Shown here piece by piece: positions 1 through 6,863 of a stretch of DNA of 6,863 nt. The position numbers and the translations under genes are program-made. The stretch is from the IMG/VR virus record IMGVR_UViG_2740892230_000020; one strand, written 5' to 3'. The first letter of the stretch is position 1. Each line of letters begins with the position of its first letter. The notes beneath the pieces are model-generated. The model worked only from the letters and a program-made list of their open reading frames with translations, ran no database searches and was not told the origin of the DNA. The stretch is from a virus (taxonomy: Duplodnaviria > Heunggongvirae > Uroviricota > Caudoviricetes).

Positions 1-168
1 ATTGCACTTCAGTTCGGTGGTGGTAATGAGGAGACGAATCTCTGGACGCTCTGTACCGAATGCCATCGACAAAAGTCTGCTCGTGAAGCGGCGGGTGGTA
101 TGCCGGACCCGACGCTGCCGGAGGTGTCCGGAGGTAGTGGCAGAGCGGACGACATCATCGGACTGTAA
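1..168 (+). CDS. HNH endonuclease, C-terminal fragment (5' end cut by window start); diverged second copy of the gene at 6604..6863
   Basis: Frame-1 translation from position 1 reads IALQFGGGNEETNLWTLCTECHRQKSAREAAGGMPDPTLPEVSGGSGRADDIIGL, then TAA at 166..168. It contains the C-terminal C-x2-C-H zinc knuckle of HNH nucleases. The nucleotide sequence is the near-identical reverse complement of 6604..6771. Absent from the ORF track because it is under 60 codons with no start codon in the window. Confidence 0.65.
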   Translation: MALQFGGGNEETNLWTLCTECHRQKSAREAAGGMPDPTLPEVSGGSGRADDIIGL

Positions 169-248
169 CCCGACCCGGGGGGGGGTATCATCCGGCGTAA
201 AAAAAGATCGCTTTGGACACCGCCCCCCCTCTCACGCAGAGAAAAAAT
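1..248. repeat. Left arm of an inverted repeat (HNH 3' end plus 80-bp flank); partner at 6527..6771
   Basis: By manual alignment, 1..248 is the reverse complement of 6527..6771 at roughly 94% identity. Differences: 8 clustered substitutions at 69..94, about 4 substitutions in the flank, and a 2-nt homopolymer length difference. Confidence 0.8.
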
Positions 249-258: not shown

Positions 259-520
259 GCAGTACATCCGGATCATAATCACGACCATCACGCGGTACCG
301 GAATGGTCCCCACAGCGTCATCCACCATCGCCTGCAGAACCGGATGTACCTCATCCACCGTCACATGCTTCTGTAATACCGCCGACAGGGAAGCCAGTTT
401 CTCTTCAAACGCTTGTGCCTGCGCGGCCATCTTCCCCTCAAATGTGCGCTGTAAATCCGCCAGCACCGTGGAGAATTCTTCGCCCAGTGCACGAATAATG
501 GACAGTTCCCGTTCCGTCAT
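259..520 (-). CDS. Hypothetical phage head-module protein, translationally coupled to the portal gene; 3' end lost in the N gap
   Basis: ATG at 520..518 overlaps the portal stop (517..519) in an ATGA arrangement. The open frame runs to the gap and encodes MTERELSIIRALGEEFSTVLADLQRTFEGKMAAQAQAFEEKLASLSAVLQKHVTVDEVHPVLQAMVDDAVGTIPVPRDGRDYDPDVL, which looks helical and acidic. The ORF-track extension to 188 crosses the N run and reads through the inverted HNH flank, so it is not trustworthy. I recognise no family. Confidence 0.45.
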
Positions 521-1881
521 TTTCTCAGTATCCCCCTGAACATCGCTTTCACTGCATCATGCTCTGTTTCACTGATTGCCTTATTACCGTCAGATGCGCC
601 GTCAGGCAGTTGTGCTGAAACTGTTTTCCCGGCCGACGCGAACGGGTCCTCACGGGCATCACGACGGGACAGCGCCTCCAGACTGTAGTTCTGCTGCTGA
701 AGATACAGTGCATCACCGCCGGCAAGGGGCGGCAGGTTCTCACGTTTACGGGCCTCATTGGGCGTGAGAAGCGTATTTTTCACCGATTCACCCAGTGTTT
801 TCATGCGCCGTTCGCTGTCCATTCTCAGCAGCGTGGTGACGTCAAACTCCGTGCTCTCGTTTTCCCCCGTTTCCAGCGCCTCATCCAGTAACAGCTCAAT
901 GGACTCAATCAGCGTCTGCAGACACTGGGAATAATACTGCTGCTCCAGCGCCTCCACGTTGTCACTGGAAGGCGGGTGGCCAACGCCAATCTTGTAGGCC
1001 GGGACACGGAACACCGAACAGACAATTTCAGCCGTCATTTTCAGTTGTTCCACCGTCTGCGCATCCACCGGTGAAAACGTCGTGGGGCTGTATTTTGCCC
1101 CGTTGCTCAGTATGGCCGTCTTCCCGGCATTTTCGCCCGTATATCCGCTGTCCCAGTTCCCCTTCAGTTTTTTCGCGTTTTCTTCCGTAATACTGCCGGG
1201 GACCTCAATCACGCCTGATGGTCGCCCGCCATTTCTGAAAAAATACGTCGAATTTGCCTGAATATGATGCCCCTGCATGGCCGCCAGCCCGGCGGCATAC
1301 ACCGGCGGCAGCCCCACAAGCGGATGAAAAAAACAGTTAAACCGGTCGTGGATCACTTCCCGGGCAGGCACCGTCACCGCCTCCGTGATCCCGCAGTTCC
1401 GGTCCGGCGTGATGCGATAGAACACCTCGCCGTCATCCGCCACCAGAGGTTCAACCCGGTTCCAGTCCAGAATACGCAGTTCTTTGATCTGCCCCCGGGA
1501 GTTACGGATTTTCAGCACCACCGTATTGCCGTGACGCAGTTTGGCGTTCAGCCACAGTTCAAAAAACTGGATACGATTCTGCTGTGCATTGGGACGACGA
1601 CAGAGACGGGCAATATCCCCCTGCCGTTTTTCACGGCGGATCCCCTGTGTATCGGTCTGCATCAGGCGCAGTCGCATTTTGGCGATATCCTGGGATATCA
1701 GCGAAATGCAAGAAAACACCGCGTGAAAGGACAAAACGGTTTCCGGATCGGCTTTCACACCCTGCTGCCAGGCACCGGCAAAAGGCTCAGCCACCGCCTG
1801 AAACAGGGACCGCCAGCCCACTTCTCTTACGTCACGTCCTGATTTCTGGTTTTTTCGGGTTCGCCGCAAAAGGTTCCACAT
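517..1881 (-). CDS. Phage portal protein (HK97-type portal family)
   Basis: 454-aa ORF. The region YFFRNGGRPSGVIEVPGSITEENAKKLKGNWDSGYTGENAGKTAILSNGAKYSPTTFSPVDAQTVEQLKMTAEIVCSVFRVPAYKIG matches the conserved core I recall for HK97-type portals (FF-NG-PSGVL, W...Y.G..NAGK, EI...F.VP). GGAG lies 8 nt upstream of the ATG at 1881. The start is uncertain: an in-frame GTG at codon 21 is possible if the 1827..2048 ORF is real. Confidence 0.85.
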   Translation of the reverse strand: MWNLLRRTRKNQKSGRDVREVGWRSLFQAVAEPFAGAWQQGVKADPETVLSFHAVFSCISLISQDIAKMRLRLMQTDTQGIRREKRQGDIARLCRRPNAQQNRIQFFELWLNAKLRHGNTVVLKIRNSRGQIKELRILDWNRVEPLVADDGEVFYRITPDRNCGITEAVTVPAREVIHDRFNCFFHPLVGLPPVYAAGLAAMQGHHIQANSTYFFRNGGRPSGVIEVPGSITEENAKKLKGNWDSGYTGENAGKTAILSNGAKYSPTTFSPVDAQTVEQLKMTAEIVCSVFRVPAYKIGVGHPPSSDNVEALEQQYYSQCLQTLIESIELLLDEALETGENESTEFDVTTLLRMDSERRMKTLGESVKNTLLTPNEARKRENLPPLAGGDALYLQQQNYSLEALSRRDAREDPFASAGKTVSAQLPDGASDGNKAISETEHDAVKAMFRGILRK

Positions 1882-2048
1882 TCGCCATGCTCCGCATCAC
1901 GTTTCTTTTTCTGACCTGCCGGACGTCGCGCTGTGATGTACTCCGCCTTCCCCAGGCGAACCAGCACCTCCGCACACGGCTGTGCCACATCACGGATATC
2001 CCCGGCCCGGGCATCATGCGTGCCCTGCAGATACTGGATTTTTGCCAT
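1827..2048 (-). CDS. Possible small ORF (73 aa) between capsid and portal genes; doubtful
   Basis: ATG-initiated ORF lying mostly in the 211-bp gap between the capsid stop (2093) and portal start (1881), with protein-like composition (MAKIQYLQGTHDARAGDIRDVAQPCAEVLVRLGKAEYITARRPAGQKKKRDAEHGE...). It has no Shine-Dalgarno within 5-10 nt of the ATG and overlaps the annotated portal start by 55 nt in another frame. Confidence 0.2.
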   Translation of the reverse strand: MAKIQYLQGTHDARAGDIRDVAQPCAEVLVRLGKAEYITARRPAGQKKKRDAEHGECGTFCGEPEKTRNQDVT

Positions 2049-2092
2049 CTGTTACTGCGGGAAGCTCGCGCCTCCCGCCCTCCTCATCAGAC

Positions 2093-4030
2093 TCAGCCAC
2101 CGGACGCAGTTCCGTAGTTCACACCGGTGATCACCGCCACTGCCGCGGTACGGCGACGACGCCAGTTGATCCAGCGCTCCGCACGGATGGCCACGCTGCC
2201 GGTCTGAAACATGGAGACCAGTTCCACCGGTGACGGTGTGCTGCTGTCGCTGGTCGGTTCAGACTGCATCTCCAGTGACGCTTCACGGGACATATCCACC
2301 GCCACACCGCCGTCATCAGCCAGATAAATATCCGGTGCATTCACCAGTACCAGCTGGTCACCCACATACTGGGAGACAATCACCGGAAGCCCCTGGAAGG
2401 TCCCGCCCAGCAAGGTCATGTCCGGATATTCCTTCTGCCCCAGCGCATTTTTACGCATGGACAGCGCCAGGGCATTCGTGCTGGACATCAGCCAGACCGC
2501 ACCGGTGGGCTGCAGATTTGCCGTCACAAACTGGCCAAACGCGGCCTCGGCATCCGCATCCGGGTTACCGGTTGATGCCGTGCCCTTCACATCATGGGTG
2601 ATGGACGCCGGGGAGACATCCGCCACCGCCGCTTTTTTCGGGTCCACAAAGTCTGTGTCCAGACGCGCCACCACCGCTTCTGCCAGCGCATTACGGACCA
2701 GCGCATCAGCTGCCGGACTGGAAAAACGGATCAGCTCTTCCGTCAGTACCGCAATGGCCGACACCTTCGCATGACTGAAGGTGATGGATTCAAAATCAAA
2801 CTTCGTCAGGGGTCTGGCCTTACCCTCCCCCACCCAGCCGGCAGCACCACCGGACACCTGGGCATGCACGCGGATATTGAACGGCACCTGACGAAGTGCA
2901 GGGATCCCGCCCTGACCAAATCGCCCGATAATGGTCTGCGGACGCAGGTAATCAATAAAGTCCTGCGCATATTCCTGGTATTCAGACAGGCTGCCTGCCC
3001 ACTGCGGGTCCGTGGTGGTCCCTGCCCCCACCGCCGATTTCAGGACATGATGCAGACGGCTGTCATCCGGATACTGACGACGGGCCACTTCCAGGGCTTC
3101 AGAGCGGACACCTTTAGCCGCGGCCAGTGATTTGGCAAAGCGGGCGAAACCAATCCCCTTCTCCAGTTTCTGCTCAACACGGATCACCGGCGCTGAAGCC
3201 ACCGTGGCCACATTCCCGTTACCGGCCTGTTTCACCGGCTGTGCCGTGGCGGCCTTACTGGTTTCCAGTTCACGCAGACGCTTCAGGTGCGCATCCACCT
3301 GACGGATTTCCGCTGCGGTGTTGTCGTAGTGCTCTTCCTCTTCCACATCCAGTGTGCGGCCTTCCTCTGCGGCTTTGTTCATGATCTCCTCAAGGGAGGC
3401 TGCCAGCGCCGCACGCTTGTTTTCAAAACTTTTAATCTGTTCACCAGTATTCATTGCTGACTTTTCCTTATGAAAAGAGGTTATTGACTGTGCCGAAGCG
3501 CCGGCAGAAGATGCGATTTTCACCACCGGTTTCCGGTTGCCGGACGCGGCAGAAAACGGGCGGTCGAAATATTTAATGGTCCGGATGGTGCATTCCGCAT
3601 TCGCGGGCACGGTGACGGCAGACACCTCCATCAGCTCCCAGCGCAGAAAATGCAGTCCGCCTCCGTCCAGATAAGTGTATTCATGGGGCCGGAAGCCCAC
3701 AGAAAGCCCCCTGACCAGCCCGGTCTTAATGGCAGCCCAGGCCTCATCCAGCCGGGCTGCCATCTGGGAGGGCATCCCCGGCTCCGGCTTCACCAGCATT
3801 GCCGTGATTTCCAGCCCTTCCCTGACCCGACGCACCGTACACTGGCCTACAGGGCGGGAATGGTCATGCTGCCAGAGAAACGGGATCGTACTGCCAAACT
3901 CCGCCCCCTCCGGCTCCAGGATGTCACCATCCCGATCCGGAGAAGGCGTTGACGCAATCCCGGTGATCACCCGTTCATCCTCGCTGAAGGATTTCACCGT
4001 CAGCAGGGAACAGGCCCGTTTAAGAGTCAC
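2093..4030 (-). CDS. Prohead protease / scaffold-like coiled coil / major capsid protein fusion (HK97 family)
   Basis: 645-aa ORF. The N-terminal ~165 aa carry HK97-type prohead protease motifs (ITGIASTPSPDRDGDILEPEGAEF; His in WQHDHS; Ser in VRGLSVGFRP, about 50 residues after the His). Residues ~190-280 are a charged helical segment (EQIKSFENKRAALAASLEEIMNKAAEEGRTLDVEEEE...LKRLRELE). The C-terminal ~350 aa resemble the HK97-fold capsid body. The GTG start at 4030 is preceded by a perfect AGGAGG (4036..4041 on +) with a 5-nt spacer. Confidence 0.85.
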   Translation of the reverse strand: MTLKRACSLLTVKSFSEDERVITGIASTPSPDRDGDILEPEGAEFGSTIPFLWQHDHSRPVGQCTVRRVREGLEITAMLVKPEPGMPSQMAARLDEAWAAIKTGLVRGLSVGFRPHEYTYLDGGGLHFLRWELMEVSAVTVPANAECTIRTIKYFDRPFSAASGNRKPVVKIASSAGASAQSITSFHKEKSAMNTGEQIKSFENKRAALAASLEEIMNKAAEEGRTLDVEEEEHYDNTAAEIRQVDAHLKRLRELETSKAATAQPVKQAGNGNVATVASAPVIRVEQKLEKGIGFARFAKSLAAAKGVRSEALEVARRQYPDDSRLHHVLKSAVGAGTTTDPQWAGSLSEYQEYAQDFIDYLRPQTIIGRFGQGGIPALRQVPFNIRVHAQVSGGAAGWVGEGKARPLTKFDFESITFSHAKVSAIAVLTEELIRFSSPAADALVRNALAEAVVARLDTDFVDPKKAAVADVSPASITHDVKGTASTGNPDADAEAAFGQFVTANLQPTGAVWLMSSTNALALSMRKNALGQKEYPDMTLLGGTFQGLPVIVSQYVGDQLVLVNAPDIYLADDGGVAVDMSREASLEMQSEPTSDSSTPSPVELVSMFQTGSVAIRAERWINWRRRRTAAVAVITGVNYGTASGG

Positions 4031-4042
4031 ATCAGCCTCCTG

Positions 4043-4068
4043 AAAATAAAAAAACCGCCGCAGCGGTT
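4043..4068 (-). terminator. Intrinsic-terminator-like hairpin plus U-tract between terL and the capsid gene
   Basis: Minus-strand RNA reads GAACCGCUGCGGCGGUUUUUUUAUUUUC. The stem AACCGC/GCGGUU closes a 4-nt loop and is followed by U7-A-U4, which runs directly into the AGGAGG ribosome-binding site of the capsid gene. The plus strand has no equivalent T-tract, so the element is orientation-specific. Confidence 0.45.
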
Positions 4069-4093
4069 CATGATGGTTACAGGGTGAGCAGGG

Positions 4094-5755
4094 TTATATG
4101 AAAAAAACCTCATACGCTTTCTTTTTCGGTTCCGGATTCAGGGACATCAGGGACACCGCATTGAAGAGCGCCATCAGCGGGTCAATTTTTCCCCGTCCGC
4201 TGGCCTGTTTGGTGATAAGAATGGCGTTACCTTTAGGCTCCACCCGGGCATTGCCAACGCACCAGGCCATCAGTGGCTGACCACCATGCACCAGTACTCC
4301 CTCAGCCAGTTTGCGCTCGGTGGTTTTTATGGCCCCGCCCAGCTTCCAGCCCTGGCTTATCCCCACAACAATTCCGTCGGGGATCCCGGCTTCCGCCAGT
4401 GAATCCAGAATCTGCCCCACACCTGACGGGTCAATACCGATATGCTCCAGTAACTCAGCCTCATGAATACGACGCACATACTCCGCCACTTCCGCCGTGT
4501 CATCCCCGACCCGACGGACAATCGTCATGTCTCCACAGGCCACAAAATCCTGAAAACGGGATGCCTCACTCTTCCGTCTGACCACCGCGGTTTCATGCGC
4601 CCAGGCATGGCCCCAGCCCAGCCATTCGCGGGTTTCCCTGTCACGGCCAATCACGTACATTCCCAGCAGATCATCCAGGCCCCCGCCGTCAATCCCCACC
4701 GTCACCACATCAGCGCGCTGCAGGATATCGTCCAGGCTGACGCGCCTGCCCTGCTGCTCCCAGAAATCCGCACCCGCCCAGCGGTCAGAACGCAGGGCAA
4801 GACCAATTTCCACATTGGCATGTTTTGACATGAAGCCACGAAATGCTTCCTCACCAGCCTCCCGGGCTTTACGGTACTCCCGGTACAGAAAAGCCTCATC
4901 CACCGAATAACCGAGATTCGGGTTAACCATGGCGAGGTTTTCCATCAGCAGGTGAGCCCCGCTTTCCACCATTTCAGGAGGATGCTCAAAAATCACCGGC
5001 AGAAAGTGCGGATCATGAATTTTGCCGTCACGGACATCCCGGGCATACTGCAGTTTCTGTCTGAACACCCCGGCGGGCGGTTCATTCGACTGGGTGGTCG
5101 TATACACCACAAACCCTTCCGGACGGGAGGCAAGCCCGCCGATGGCTTCACGTAGCATGTCTTCCGCCTTGTACTGCTTGCCAAACAGCCACAGTTCATC
5201 AATCAGTGTCCCCACGGACTTGATACCGGACACCGTATTCGGATCGGCTGCCACCACCTTCAGGGTGGTGTCCGTCACCCGATGGGTGATGGTCCGGATA
5301 TGTGTCTGCACCTGACAGAGGTCATCCAGATCATCGTCCCGTCGTACCATATCCCTGGCAGGGTTGAAGGCGTTAGCCGCCACCTCCACGGTCGGGGCCA
5401 GAATGGTGTAGCCCGCCGCCTGCCGCCAGTTCAGTAACAGCGCCGTCATCATGATCCCCGCAGCCAGCGTGGACTTACTGTTTTTCTTGGGGATAAGGAT
5501 AAACACTTCCTTGATATGGCGAACACCGGTCTGCGCATCGTAGGAGCCAAACAGGGCCGCCACCAGGTCAAACACCCACGGTGCACAGGACTCCCCGAAT
5601 GTCGGGCTACCCGGTGCATCCACAATTCGCAGTTGTTTAAAAATCGCCAGTGCATGTGCAGCCTGGTCCGGATAAATCGGAGCCGGAATAATCGACAGCC
5701 CCTTTTTCAGGCGCTCTGCCCAGTCCGGGCAGGCCGTGCTCCACACAGGTATCAT
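4094..5755 (-). CDS. terL: Terminase large subunit (ATPase/nuclease)
   Basis: 553-aa ORF. Walker-A-like motif in FILIPKKNSKSTLAAGIMMTALL, C-terminal nuclease-domain-like VTVGIDGGGLDDLLGMYVIGRD, and length and position typical of HK97-type large terminases. The ATG at 5755 overlaps the terS stop (ATGA) and is preceded by GAGGG with a 6-nt spacer. Confidence 0.9.
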   Translation of the reverse strand: MIPVWSTACPDWAERLKKGLSIIPAPIYPDQAAHALAIFKQLRIVDAPGSPTFGESCAPWVFDLVAALFGSYDAQTGVRHIKEVFILIPKKNSKSTLAAGIMMTALLLNWRQAAGYTILAPTVEVAANAFNPARDMVRRDDDLDDLCQVQTHIRTITHRVTDTTLKVVAADPNTVSGIKSVGTLIDELWLFGKQYKAEDMLREAIGGLASRPEGFVVYTTTQSNEPPAGVFRQKLQYARDVRDGKIHDPHFLPVIFEHPPEMVESGAHLLMENLAMVNPNLGYSVDEAFLYREYRKAREAGEEAFRGFMSKHANVEIGLALRSDRWAGADFWEQQGRRVSLDDILQRADVVTVGIDGGGLDDLLGMYVIGRDRETREWLGWGHAWAHETAVVRRKSEASRFQDFVACGDMTIVRRVGDDTAEVAEYVRRIHEAELLEHIGIDPSGVGQILDSLAEAGIPDGIVVGISQGWKLGGAIKTTERKLAEGVLVHGGQPLMAWCVGNARVEPKGNAILITKQASGRGKIDPLMALFNAVSLMSLNPEPKKKAYEVFFI

Positions 5756-6315
5756 CCGTTGCCCTCATTATCATTATTCACCACCAGGCGGGGTGGTGGT
5801 GGCACCGCAAAACGGTTAGCCGCTTTTTTCGCCGCGTCACCTTTTGCCGATTTTTTACCGGCATCCCCTTTTTTATGGTGCGTGAACTGCGCCAGCTTAT
5901 AAGCCGCATCCAGCGCCAGCCTGGGGTCGGTATTAATGTTCTCCACCAGAAGACGCCCCATCGCTTTCACCGGATCGGGAAGACCATCCTCCATATATTC
6001 AATACCAGGAGACATCACCGCGGACGGTGGCATCTCCGGATTGTTTTCGTCCGGCTGTGGTATTGCAGCCGCCTCACGGCGACGGGGTTTATCCTCCTGC
6101 TCTGATTTTTTCTGCCGGTAAACAGGAACCTCATCCACCTCCACCGTCTCGCATTGTTTACGGGCTATAAACGCAAGCACCTCCGGATCTTTTGCCAGCT
6201 GCGAGCCTTTAACCCTGGCGGTCTTCGCCGAATAACCAGCGGCAATGGCTGACGCTGTTTTGTTTTTCCCGGACATGAGCGCCAGCGCAAATTTTCGTTT
6301 TTGCGTTGTCAGCAC
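5752..6315 (-). CDS. terS: Terminase small subunit
   Basis: 187-aa ORF. The N-terminus LTTQKRKFALALMSGKNKTASAIAAGYSAKTARVKGSQLAKDPEVLAFI fits the helix-turn-helix signature of small terminases (LT-KQ..F...Y...N.T.AA..AGYS.KTA...G..LL..P.V), followed by a Lys-rich C-terminus. GTG start at 6315 is preceded by GGGAGGAGG. It sits immediately upstream of, and is translationally coupled to, terL. Confidence 0.75.
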   Translation of the reverse strand: MLTTQKRKFALALMSGKNKTASAIAAGYSAKTARVKGSQLAKDPEVLAFIARKQCETVEVDEVPVYRQKKSEQEDKPRRREAAAIPQPDENNPEMPPSAVMSPGIEYMEDGLPDPVKAMGRLLVENINTDPRLALDAAYKLAQFTHHKKGDAGKKSAKGDAAKKAANRFAVPPPPRLVVNNDNEGNG

Positions 6316-6385
6316 AGCCTCCTCCCGGGTCCAGAACGCACTCAGCCGGGTATGGTTCAGCCCATTTTTCCCGGCGTCTCATGCC

Positions 6386-6513
6386 GCAAATGTTAACTGC
6401 TGCCTGGTTAACATTTGCTGAAAAAGCCAGTTAACATTTTTTCCGCACAACAAACTGAATAATAAAGATAAAAACCGCAAAAATGCCCGGACAGCCAGTT
6501 AACATGTTAACTG
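6386..6513. promoter_or_regulatory. Array of GTTAAC-core palindromic sites (candidate terS-binding cosB-like sites or operator array)
   Basis: Five GTTAAC hexamers at 6392, 6407, 6430, 6498 and 6506, all within extended half-sites C(A/T)GTTAACAT. 6386..6418 is a 12-bp inverted repeat (gcaaatgttaac / gttaacatttgc) around a 9-bp spacer. 6496..6513 is a perfect 18-bp palindrome (cagttaacatgttaactg). An A/T-rich tract (6448..6485) lies between the sites. Confidence 0.5.
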
Positions 6514-6526
6514 CCCTGAAACGGGA

Positions 6527-6771
6527 ATTTTTTCTCTGCGTGAGAGGGGGGGCGGTGTCCGGAGCGATCGTTTTTTACGCCGAATGATACCCCCCCGGTC
6601 GGGTTACAGTCCGATGATGTCGTCCGCTCTGCCACTACCTCCGGACACCTCCGGCAGCGTCGGGTCCGGCATACCACTCGCCGTTTCACTGACTGACTTC
6701 TGGCGATGGCATTCGGTACAGAGCGTCCAGAGATTCGTCTCCTCATTACCACCACCGAACTGAAGTGCAAT
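6527..6771. repeat. Right arm of the inverted repeat (partner of 1..248)
   Basis: See left arm. Homology presumably continues beyond 6771 into the rest of HNH, but the left copy is cut by the window start. Confidence 0.8.
6546..6596. other. G7...C7 homopolymer dyad immediately 3' of HNH (candidate cos nicking region)
   Basis: A G7 run (6546..6552) and a C7 run (6590..6596) flank a ~37-bp spacer, directly downstream of the HNH stop at 6604. The same arrangement recurs in the inverted copy at 177..229 with a 9-nt run. Its position between HNH and terS is where cos lies in HK97-like phages. Confidence 0.3.
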
Positions 6772-6863
6772 GCGGTGATCGAGTTCACTGTCACAAAGGT
6801 CAACCACACGCCCACAGAGACAGCACTGTCCGGCATCCCTCAGCCAGATACGACGCTTGAGGG
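6604..6863 (-). CDS. HNH endonuclease (5' partial; start beyond window end)
   Basis: The minus-strand frame is open from the window edge: LKRRIWLRDAGQCCLCGRVVDLCDSELDHRIALQFGGGNEETNLWTLCTECHRQKSVSETASGMPDPTLPEVSGGSGRADDIIGL, with stop at 6604. It shows the full HNH zinc-finger signature (C-x2-C...DH...N...C-x2-C-H). The ORF-track entry 6604..6807 is the same frame started at an internal GTG. Confidence 0.85.
   Translation of the reverse strand, partial: LKRRIWLRDAGQCCLCGRVVDLCDSELDHRIALQFGGGNEETNLWTLCTECHRQKSVSETASGMPDPTLPEVSGGSGRADDIIGL

Follow-up and report, generated by a model that had tools for sequence, protein, structure and literature searches.

The closest described relatives of this locus are the phages Stx2a_WGPS2 (Sawaravirus), BP-4795 (Marienburgvirus), 2851, 1717, and Lys8385Vzw, the last of which has been induced, imaged as a siphovirus, and found to lysogenize laboratory strains (PMC6986202). 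A gene for a "major head protein/prohead protease" is already annotated ahead of the portal gene in the BP-4795 record, and the records of BP-4795 (ORF54-59), Stx2a_WGPS2, and Lys8385Vzw have the gene order described here, followed in Stx2a_WGPS2 by head-tail connector and tail genes. Our literature search, which covered sources other than PMC421614 (Liu & Mushegian 2004) and PMC1317009 (the BP-4795 paper), found no explicit discussion of this order or of the protease/capsid fusion. The initial annotation had noted that the order departs from the HK97 archetype, and the difference is real because both HK97 and D3 are arranged terS-terL-portal-protease-capsid; a module rearrangement, a distinct lineage, and a chimeric assembly were offered as explanations. 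The window, meaning the whole stretch of 6,863 nucleotides analyzed, was identified with a probability of about 95% as the packaging and head module of a lambdoid, long-tailed E. coli prophage of the BP-4795/Stx2a_WGPS2 type (Marienburgvirus/Sawaravirus), recovered from a scaffolded draft assembly and carrying its genes in a native, conserved order.

Gene content and integrity of the window

The minus strand encodes, in order, an HNH endonuclease truncated at the window edge, TerS, TerL, a 645-aa fusion protein, a 73-aa ORF, a 454-aa portal protein, and the start of a further ORF. From the low-coordinate end, the features are:

1 to 248, plus strand: 3′ end of an HNH gene and downstream sequence, inverted, 94% identical to 6527-6771
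249 to 258, no strand: scaffold gap of 10 N, at the start of the 162-bp tandem array found in the post-portal ORF of relatives
259 to 520, minus strand: first 87 codons of the post-portal ORF (phrog_8767), in ATGA overlap with the portal stop and ended by the scaffold gap
517 to 1881, minus strand: HK97-family portal, 454 aa (PF04860, E = 2.9e-80)
1827 to 2048, minus strand: conserved 73-aa ORF (phrog_829, E = 8.3e-39), directly upstream of and overlapping the portal gene
2093 to 4030, minus strand: protease/capsid fusion, 645 aa, GTG start, comprising an S78 prohead protease (aa 1 to about 165), a variable linker, a coiled-coil delta/scaffold-like region (aa 193 to about 331), and an HK97-fold major capsid domain (about aa 332-645)
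3452 to 3470, minus strand: candidate internal start, an in-frame ATG for Met193 (nt 3454-3452) with TAAGGA ahead of it (3470-3465)
4094 to 5755, minus strand: terminase large subunit TerL, 553 aa (PF03354 and PF20441; phrog_9, E = 1.5e-146)
5752 to 6315, minus strand: terminase small subunit TerS, 187 aa (PF03592, E = 1.5e-8; phrog_641, E = 2.6e-68)
6604 to 6863, minus strand: HNH endonuclease gene, 5′ end lost at the window edge, 121 aa in relatives (PF01844 HNH, E = 1.3e-6; phrog_589; labeled HNH at the equivalent position in Stx2a_WGPS2 and E. coli 13E0780)

All domain calls in the window were above curated profile thresholds. The three large ORFs (517-1881, 2093-4030, and 4094-5755, all on the minus strand) lie where they had been placed, and profile searches confirmed the earlier reading of them from motifs as portal, protease/capsid fusion, and TerL. 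The portal matched the TIGR01537 portal_HK97 equivalog at 362.3 bits (cut-off 112) and HK97 gp3 at 28% identity (E = 1e-23), which places it in the HK97 portal family, and TerL, which overlaps terS by 4 nt, matched HK97 gp2 at 23% identity (E = 6e-11). The fusion protein matched PF04586 Peptidase_S78 at aa 48-151 (32.7 bits, cut-off 21), PF05065 Phage_capsid at aa 386-635 (55.5 bits, cut-off 24.2), TIGR01554 major_cap_HK97 at aa 204-584 (80.9 bits, cut-off 27.5), and phrog_617 (E = 3.8e-259). Its protease part is 29% identical to HK97 gp4, with H55 and S110 aligned to the catalytic H65 and S114; NCBIfam TIGR01543 scored 44.1 on the protease, under its cut-off of 59. An HK97-family major capsid protein and an S78 prohead protease with catalytic His and Ser, as expected of an HK97-type module, are thus both present. 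The interval between TerL and the fusion gene (4031-4093) is an ordinary 63-nt intergenic spacer, and that between the fusion and portal genes (1882-2092) is mostly occupied by the 73-aa ORF, which is annotated as a hypothetical protein in all relatives and whose phrog_829 family also precedes the portal in Moraxella phage Mcat6.

Full-length relatives of the post-portal ORF encode 245-556 aa and contain a 162-bp tandem repeat, with matches to collagen and CBM_5_12. Routine annotation labels it "portal protein", or PGAP joins it to its neighbor as a "frameshifted portal"; it is a separate, fibre-like protein of coiled-coil, repeat, and CBM5-12-like composition, and the portal label is a mis-annotation. 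We rejected a reading of the portal and the following ORF as a single frameshifted gene: nearly all relatives have two distinct, overlapping ORFs, and the downstream product has a coiled-coil, repeat, and CBM-like architecture of its own. At one Brevundimonas locus, L031, the portal and downstream ORF apparently occupy a single ORF. The 162-bp tandem array is also a predictable contig-break point in short-read assemblies. The 10-N join at 249-258 is the sole assembly problem in the window and lies outside the two junctions that had been questioned; the segment at 1-248 is a piece of a second, related prophage copy. Neither the gap nor the inverted HNH copy was mentioned in the initial annotation.

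Prevalence and depth of the capsid-before-portal order

Of 5426 complete E. coli genomes, 1243 carry the 6.6-kb block in collinear form at 90-99.8% identity, with a median of two copies per genome having any, and so do 92 phage records, including Stx1a-, Stx2a-, and Stx2c-converting phages, BP-4795, 2851, 1717, and Lys8385Vzw. Stx2a_WGPS2 and E. coli chromosomes aligned over 100% of the block at 98.9-99.8% identity with identical ORF lengths, as expected of a module of the BP-4795/Stx2a_WGPS2 type. In more distant phages of Rhizobium, Pseudomonas, Burkholderia, and Moraxella, spanning alpha-, beta-, and gamma-proteobacteria, the order recurs at 35-50% identity. The arrangement terL-capsid-portal was found at 27/27 informative species-level loci, and the portal lay between terL and capsid at none. 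Two protease-only loci (L042 and L044), considered as possible relatives with the canonical order, lie beside AAA_25 and lysozyme genes and are uninformative on portal position.

Mis-joins do occur in this assembly, as the scaffold gap and the inverted HNH duplicate show, which speaks for an order produced by chimeric assembly or by a recent rearrangement peculiar to this sequence. However, the gap falls at neither the terL/capsid nor the capsid/portal junction, positions 259-6863 align by megablast in one piece at 99.7% identity to many complete chromosomes and also to phage genomes, and the order is conserved in distant genera. The alignments run continuously across both 1881-2093 and 4030-4094, where contiguity had been in doubt, and the chimera proposed at these junctions is refuted by the collinear genomes and phage records; we regard either origin as exceedingly improbable. 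A module rearrangement, if there was one, must be ancient rather than recent, since the order persists in different proteobacterial classes at identities as low as 35%. The suggestion of a distinct lineage is right, namely a widespread HK97-type head-module lineage with protease and capsid before the portal. The initial annotation had left open that a described phage family might share the order and had named its presence in many characterized phages as a refutation; such phages exist, among them BP-4795, 2851, 1717, Stx2a_WGPS2, and Lys8385Vzw. Phage D3 was rejected as a characterized example because its order is canonical; IME307, of the same genus as D3, carries the alternative head module.

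The window stops short of tail or lysis genes, and the block could also be imagined to come from a capsid-forming phage satellite (cf-PICI), with its own HNH, terminase, capsid, protease, and portal and no tail genes, rather than from a complete prophage. Such elements are 10-18 kb and carry a packaging module, with no lysis genes or complete tail module (10.1101/2025.02.11.637232). Copies 98-99.8% identical to the block nevertheless sit in Stx phages of 49-58 kb, where lysis genes immediately precede them and genes for connectors, tail tube, tape measure, and tail tip follow. [quoted passage not shown] The layout of the lineage is HNH-terS-terL-(protease+capsid)-small ORF-portal-fibre-like ORF-head-tail connector genes.

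On these comparisons, the capsid-before-portal order of the prophage module is an old, long-annotated lineage trait, neither new nor an artefact. The result itself matters little and serves chiefly as a guard against over-reading: capsid before portal is the usual arrangement in one of the commonest prophage head modules of E. coli, found in about a quarter of complete genomes, and it should not be flagged as a rearrangement or mis-assembly.

Candidate products and maturation of the fusion protein

The protein cluster nearest to the fusion has 9916 members, whose JGI name is [quoted passage not shown]. NCBIfam NF045541, "prohead protease/major capsid protein fusion protein", matched at 52.7 bits against a cut-off of 525, over aa 49-267 only; it is alike in architecture but represents another fusion family. 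The capsid part had no significant match to HK97 gp5 by direct BLASTP, and an hhalign profile alignment of the capsid domain with gp5 was weak (E = 0.04, probability 1.3%) and used only as a tentative residue map. The predicted structure of the fusion (19 homologues, ≥73% identity) had a mean pLDDT of 40.8 and a pTM of 0.26, too low for a fold search, with long helices at 195-222 and 229-261 at pLDDT of about 75 and the remainder poor. Searching solved structures with the fusion sequence gave one weak, uninformative match (9d9w, E = 0.003).

By their families, HNH, TerS, and TerL would cut and package cos DNA and a portal dodecamer would be the base for prohead assembly, while the single reading frame of the 645-aa protein would provide protease (S78), a delta-like coiled-coil scaffold, and the shell subunit with its HK97 fold. 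The protease would then take off roughly the first 331 residues, by analogy with HK97 cleavage after K103; the motif was matched by eye rather than computed (window K331-SAVGAGTTTDPQWAGSL, HK97 K103-SLGSDADSAGSL). This putative cleavage site and scaffold role draw on that motif, the weak gp5 profile alignment (E = 0.04), and the low-confidence model (pLDDT 40.8). In the same weak alignment, the HK97 isopeptide crosslink pair K169/N356 and the catalytic E363 map to R406, G611, and a retained Glu (E618) in the window; nearly all relatives have K and N at the positions of R406 and G611, and BP-4795 has retained the Lys that corresponds to K169, unlike the window with its Arg.

An ATG occurs at the position of Met193, with Shine-Dalgarno-like motifs, in 26/26 fused homologues, although the linker around it is poorly conserved, and in relatives with split genes the capsid gene begins at the equivalent point. 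Alpha-proteobacterial and Pseudomonas/Halopseudomonas copies retain strong motifs of the AGGAGG type (top 0.1-4% of background); in the window and other enterobacterial copies the match is AAGGA only (about -5.6 to -6.2 kcal/mol, top 8-14% of in-frame background positions). The start of the TIGR01554 match at aa 204 was also counted in support of an internal start. The ATG at Met193 probably gives an additional, stand-alone capsid precursor that lacks the protease, which would keep the protease-to-capsid ratio low, in a way resembling the nested C/Nu3 genes of phage lambda.

The 645-aa ORF may instead yield a single product, in which the protease of each capsid subunit cleaves itself off and the ATG is a functionless relic, a reading that we place at somewhat below even odds: the long ORF is intact in the 26 fused homologues, the enterobacterial Shine-Dalgarno match is modest, and the retained catalytic His and Ser make self-processing plausible. 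The invariance of the ATG within a poorly conserved linker, the strong motifs of the alpha-proteobacterial and Pseudomonas/Halopseudomonas copies, and the capsid gene start in split-gene relatives all argue against it. The Met193 codon may be left over from an ancestral boundary between two genes. We only tentatively suggest, as rather doubtful readings, a two-product gene (bulk capsid precursor from Met193, and a few full-length protease copies per prohead) and, separately, loss of the HK97-type chainmail crosslink in the E. coli branch (K to R at 406, N to G at 611); neither the dual-product gene nor the crosslink loss was found in the literature search. The fused gene is a convenient system for studying how the ratio of protease to capsid is set within a shared frame.

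Comparison with described head modules

Stx2a_WGPS2, BP-4795, 2851, 1717, and Lys8385Vzw share the genes and order of the window at 95-99% identity; the protease/capsid fusion, the 73-aa ORF, and the post-portal ORF are all among these genes. The Stx2a_WGPS2/BP-4795 group differs from the window only by point differences and by the copy number of a 54-aa repeat, giving post-portal ORFs of 245, 407, or 461 aa. No evidence contradicting the identification was met.

The nested C/Nu3 genes of lambda, compared by analogy only, yield a long protease product and a shorter, internally initiated one, as proposed for Met1 and Met193. The lambda protease belongs to another family, the shorter lambda product serves as scaffold and not as capsid protein, and the lambda head genes follow the canonical order portal-protease-scaffold-capsid.

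With HK97 gp1-gp5, the window shares homologous TerL (23%), portal (28%), and S78 protease (29%, catalytic His/Ser conserved) and a capsid of the HK97 family, with an N-terminal coiled-coil extension where HK97 has its delta domain; relatives of the window have homologues of the connector genes gp6, gp7, and gp10 downstream. In HK97, however, terL is followed by the portal and then by distinct protease and capsid genes, whereas in the window these last two are fused and precede the portal, departing from the canonical order. The window also has the extra small ORF and fibre-like ORF, and Arg/Gly rather than the HK97 Lys/Asn at the weakly aligned crosslink-pair positions.

Pseudomonas phage vB_PaS_IME307 (Detrevirus) and Rhizobium phage RHph_X2_26 likewise carry a fused protease/capsid gene (48-50% identity) after terL, with a small ORF, the portal gene, and then another ORF labeled "portal protein" behind it; they differ in their hosts, in one or two extra ORFs between capsid and portal, in strong AGGAG-type motifs ahead of the internal ATG, and in Lys/Asn at the crosslink-equivalent positions. 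Burkholderia phage vB_FUBS1 and Moraxella phages Mcat1/6/9 have the order terS-terL-protease-capsid-small ORF-portal, as in the window, at 35-39% identity, but their protease and capsid are two abutting or overlapping genes and they lack the post-portal ORF.

Layout of the head and packaging genes

Every substantial ORF in the ORF listing of the window lies on the minus strand:

6863-6604, minus strand: HNH endonuclease gene, truncated where the window ends
6315-5752, minus strand: terS
5755-4094, minus strand: terL
4030-2093, minus strand: 645-aa ORF, protease/capsid fusion
2048-1827, minus strand: 73-aa ORF, phrog_829
1881-517, minus strand: 454-aa ORF, portal
259-520, minus strand: first 87 codons of the post-portal ORF, start at 520, in an ATGA overlap with the portal stop

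Profile searches identified the 454-aa protein as an HK97-family portal (PF04860, E=2.9e-80; TIGR01537, 362 bits, cut-off 112), with 28% identity to HK97 gp3 (E=1e-23), and found two domains in the fusion, the S78 prohead protease at aa 48-151 and the HK97-family capsid at aa 386-635; TIGR01554 matched aa 204-584 (80.9 bits, cut-off 27.5), and phrog_617, “major head protein”, spans the whole protein. The protease region of the fusion shares 29% identity with HK97 gp4, with H55 and S110 aligned to the catalytic H65 and S114 of gp4, and TerL and TerS both scored above Pfam thresholds. By homology, HNH, TerS, and TerL would carry out cos DNA processing and packaging, and the portal would nucleate a prohead made from the capsid domain. 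The HK97 and D3 records examined carry terS-terL-portal-protease-capsid; the initial annotation, which described terS-terL-capsid fusion-portal as a departure from the HK97 archetype, was thus correct in its coordinates, domain calls, and contrast with that archetype.

Ten Ns at 249-258 interrupt the post-portal ORF, and 1-248 is an inverted copy of 6527-6771 (94% identical; the 3′ end of an HNH gene and sequence beyond). Because this copy stands beside the gap, the window is a scaffold onto which a fragment of a second related prophage was joined; 1-248 is evidently a contig end belonging to that other prophage, and the placing of the two sides of the gap next to each other carries no biological information. 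The contig break is explained by the location of the gap within the post-portal tandem array. Full-length copies of the post-portal ORF occur at three of the compared loci:

L001:15344-16567
L008:8011-9396
L047:6025-6762

Post-portal relatives have an N-terminal coiled coil followed by a variable repeat region, which in E. coli phages is built of tandem 162-bp (54-aa) units (BP-4795 has 4.6) and in alpha-proteobacterial relatives consists instead of collagen-type repeats (Pfam Collagen, E=7.6e-18). Protein lengths of 245, 407, and 461 aa differ by whole repeats, and a conserved C-terminal module like CBM5/12 was present in 7 of 11 members, each match under the Pfam cut-off. By this architecture the product is a putative fibre-like protein. 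The coiled coil, repeats, and CBM5/12-like module led us to reject its annotation as “portal protein”, and, as it is a separate gene, the PGAP merge of the portal and next ORF into a “frameshifted portal” was also rejected. At a Brevundimonas locus (L031), a single 614-aa ORF holds both portal and post-portal matches.

Contiguity and distribution of the capsid-before-portal order

A chimeric assembly, a module rearrangement, and a distinct lineage had all been proposed for this order. Against complete E. coli chromosomes, the head and packaging block (259-6863) aligned in a single piece at 99.7% identity, and both junctions at which contiguity had been questioned were ordinary, with a conserved small ORF at 1881..2093 and a 63-nt spacer at 4030..4094. 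Copies covering ≥80% of the block were found in 1243 of 5426 complete E. coli genomes (median, two per carrier genome), and the block was also present in 92 phage records, from Stx1a-, Stx2a-, and Stx2c-converting phages and several “Enterobacteria phage” entries. A chimeric assembly is therefore rejected, since the region is collinear as one piece in chromosomes and phage records alike. The module ranks with the most common head modules of E. coli prophages. The best match, in E. coli 2013C-3264 (NZ_CP027544.1, 5238298-5246356; 99.8% identity), is in two pieces over 8.06 kb, the block there being split by an IS110-like ISEc20.

Many characterized phages share the order, and it is already publicly annotated in BP-4795 and E. 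coli O157 prophage records. In BP-4795 (Marienburgvirus), ORF56, “putative major head protein/prohead protease”, precedes ORF58, “putative portal protein”; the RefSeq genome of Stx2a_WGPS2 (genus Sawaravirus) reads HNH, terS, terL, major capsid protein, hypothetical protein, and portal, followed by a “portal protein”, head-tail adaptor, head closure, gp10-like, tail terminator, and tail genes. Lys8385Vzw, with the same order as the window, is inducible, appears in images as a siphovirus (head 84 nm, tail 188 nm), and lysogenizes laboratory strains (PMC6986202); the module is therefore functional in a viable phage.

At 90% identity, the cluster closest to the fusion comprises 9916 member sequences, and among 8000 candidates tested, 2447 proteins matched the fusion at E<=1e-5. 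The relatives listed, from Salmonella, Klebsiella, Enterobacter, Serratia, Pantoea, and Kosakonia, are 644-648 aa long with both Pfam domains, and such proteins are named [quoted passage not shown] by JGI. The NCBI model NF045541 describes another “prohead protease/major capsid protein fusion protein” family, and the window fusion scored below its cut-off.

A tblastn search of a phage collection with the fusion recovered 33 records at <60% identity, from phages of Rhizobium, Pseudomonas, Burkholderia, Ralstonia, and Moraxella. In all four distant records examined, protease and capsid lie between terL and portal, fused in Rhizobium RHph_X2_26 and Pseudomonas IME307, or alternatively as two neighbouring genes in Burkholderia vB_FUBS1 and Moraxella Mcat6. 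A scan of one genome per bacterial species, using protease N-terminus patterns that are neutral as to gene order, yielded 37 loci; terL, capsid, and portal followed in that order on the same strand in 27, and the portal lay between terL and capsid in none. The others were cut by contig ends (three), had no detected portal (one), or matched the protease domain alone and are uninformative on order (six). The hosts come from Enterobacterales, Rhizobiales, Rhodobacterales, Caulobacterales, and Pseudomonadales/Moraxellaceae, as well as Binatia and Vicinamibacterales MAGs. The capsid-before-portal order is therefore a long-established and stable character of this widespread lineage, as the proposal of a distinct lineage anticipated, and is neither an artefact nor a recent rearrangement; given its conservation across distant hosts, a rearrangement stands only as an ancient event.

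Candidate internal start and tentative crosslink positions of the fusion

Between the protease and shell domains, aa 193 to ∼331 are predicted to form long helices, the sole moderately confident part of an otherwise poor structural model, and take the place of the HK97 delta domain. By eye, K331-SAVGAGTTTDPQWAGSL resembles the HK97 cleavage site K103-SLGSDADSAGSL, and because of this likeness maturation cleavage would be expected near residue 331. Met193 is an in-frame ATG with TAAGGA 10 nt upstream (the two together at window 3452-3470, minus strand); in alignment, an ATG occupies the homologous position in 26 of 26 fused genes despite a poorly conserved linker. The Shine-Dalgarno-like motif 5′ of this ATG in fused homologues is strong in alpha-proteobacterial and Pseudomonas/Halopseudomonas genes (-7 to -12 kcal/mol, top 0.1-4% of in-frame background) and modest in enterobacterial genes, the window included (AAGGA, top 8-14% of in-frame background positions). 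In split-gene relatives (n=7), the protease ORF end and capsid gene start coincide with the Met193 point. From these sequence features, Met193 is a possible second translation start, and the gene probably makes two products, the full-length protein with its protease domain and a capsid precursor begun at the internal ATG.

At the positions equivalent to HK97 K169 and N356, tentatively mapped through a weak alignment (E=0.04), the residues are Lys and Asn in nearly all relatives, Lys and Gly in BP-4795, and Arg406 and Gly611 in the window (nt 2815-2813 and 2200-2198, minus strand); Stx2a_WGPS2 shares the Arg and Gly of the window. The Glu equivalent to HK97 E363 is kept in the window. The E. 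coli branch may have lost chainmail crosslinking.

Portal-associated small ORF and comparison with other head modules

The genus Detrevirus holds both D3 and vB_PaS_IME307, yet their head modules differ: D3 shows the canonical order of portal, ClpP-type protease, and capsid, whereas in IME307 a fused S78 protease/capsid precedes the portal, a clear case of head-module mosaicism within one genus.

The conserved 73-aa ORF (phrog_829) overlaps the portal start by 55 nt, and throughout the lineage a small ORF precedes the portal without exception, as one also does in canonical-order D3; it is phrog_829 in the window and in Moraxella, and phrog_4810 in IME307 and D3. The small ORF thus seems to travel with the portal, suggesting that the two form one unit and that a protease-capsid block and a small-ORF-plus-portal block swapped places once, long ago. 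With no homology of the 73-aa ORF to gpW detected, it is by position that the pair is reminiscent of lambda, where gpW precedes gpB.
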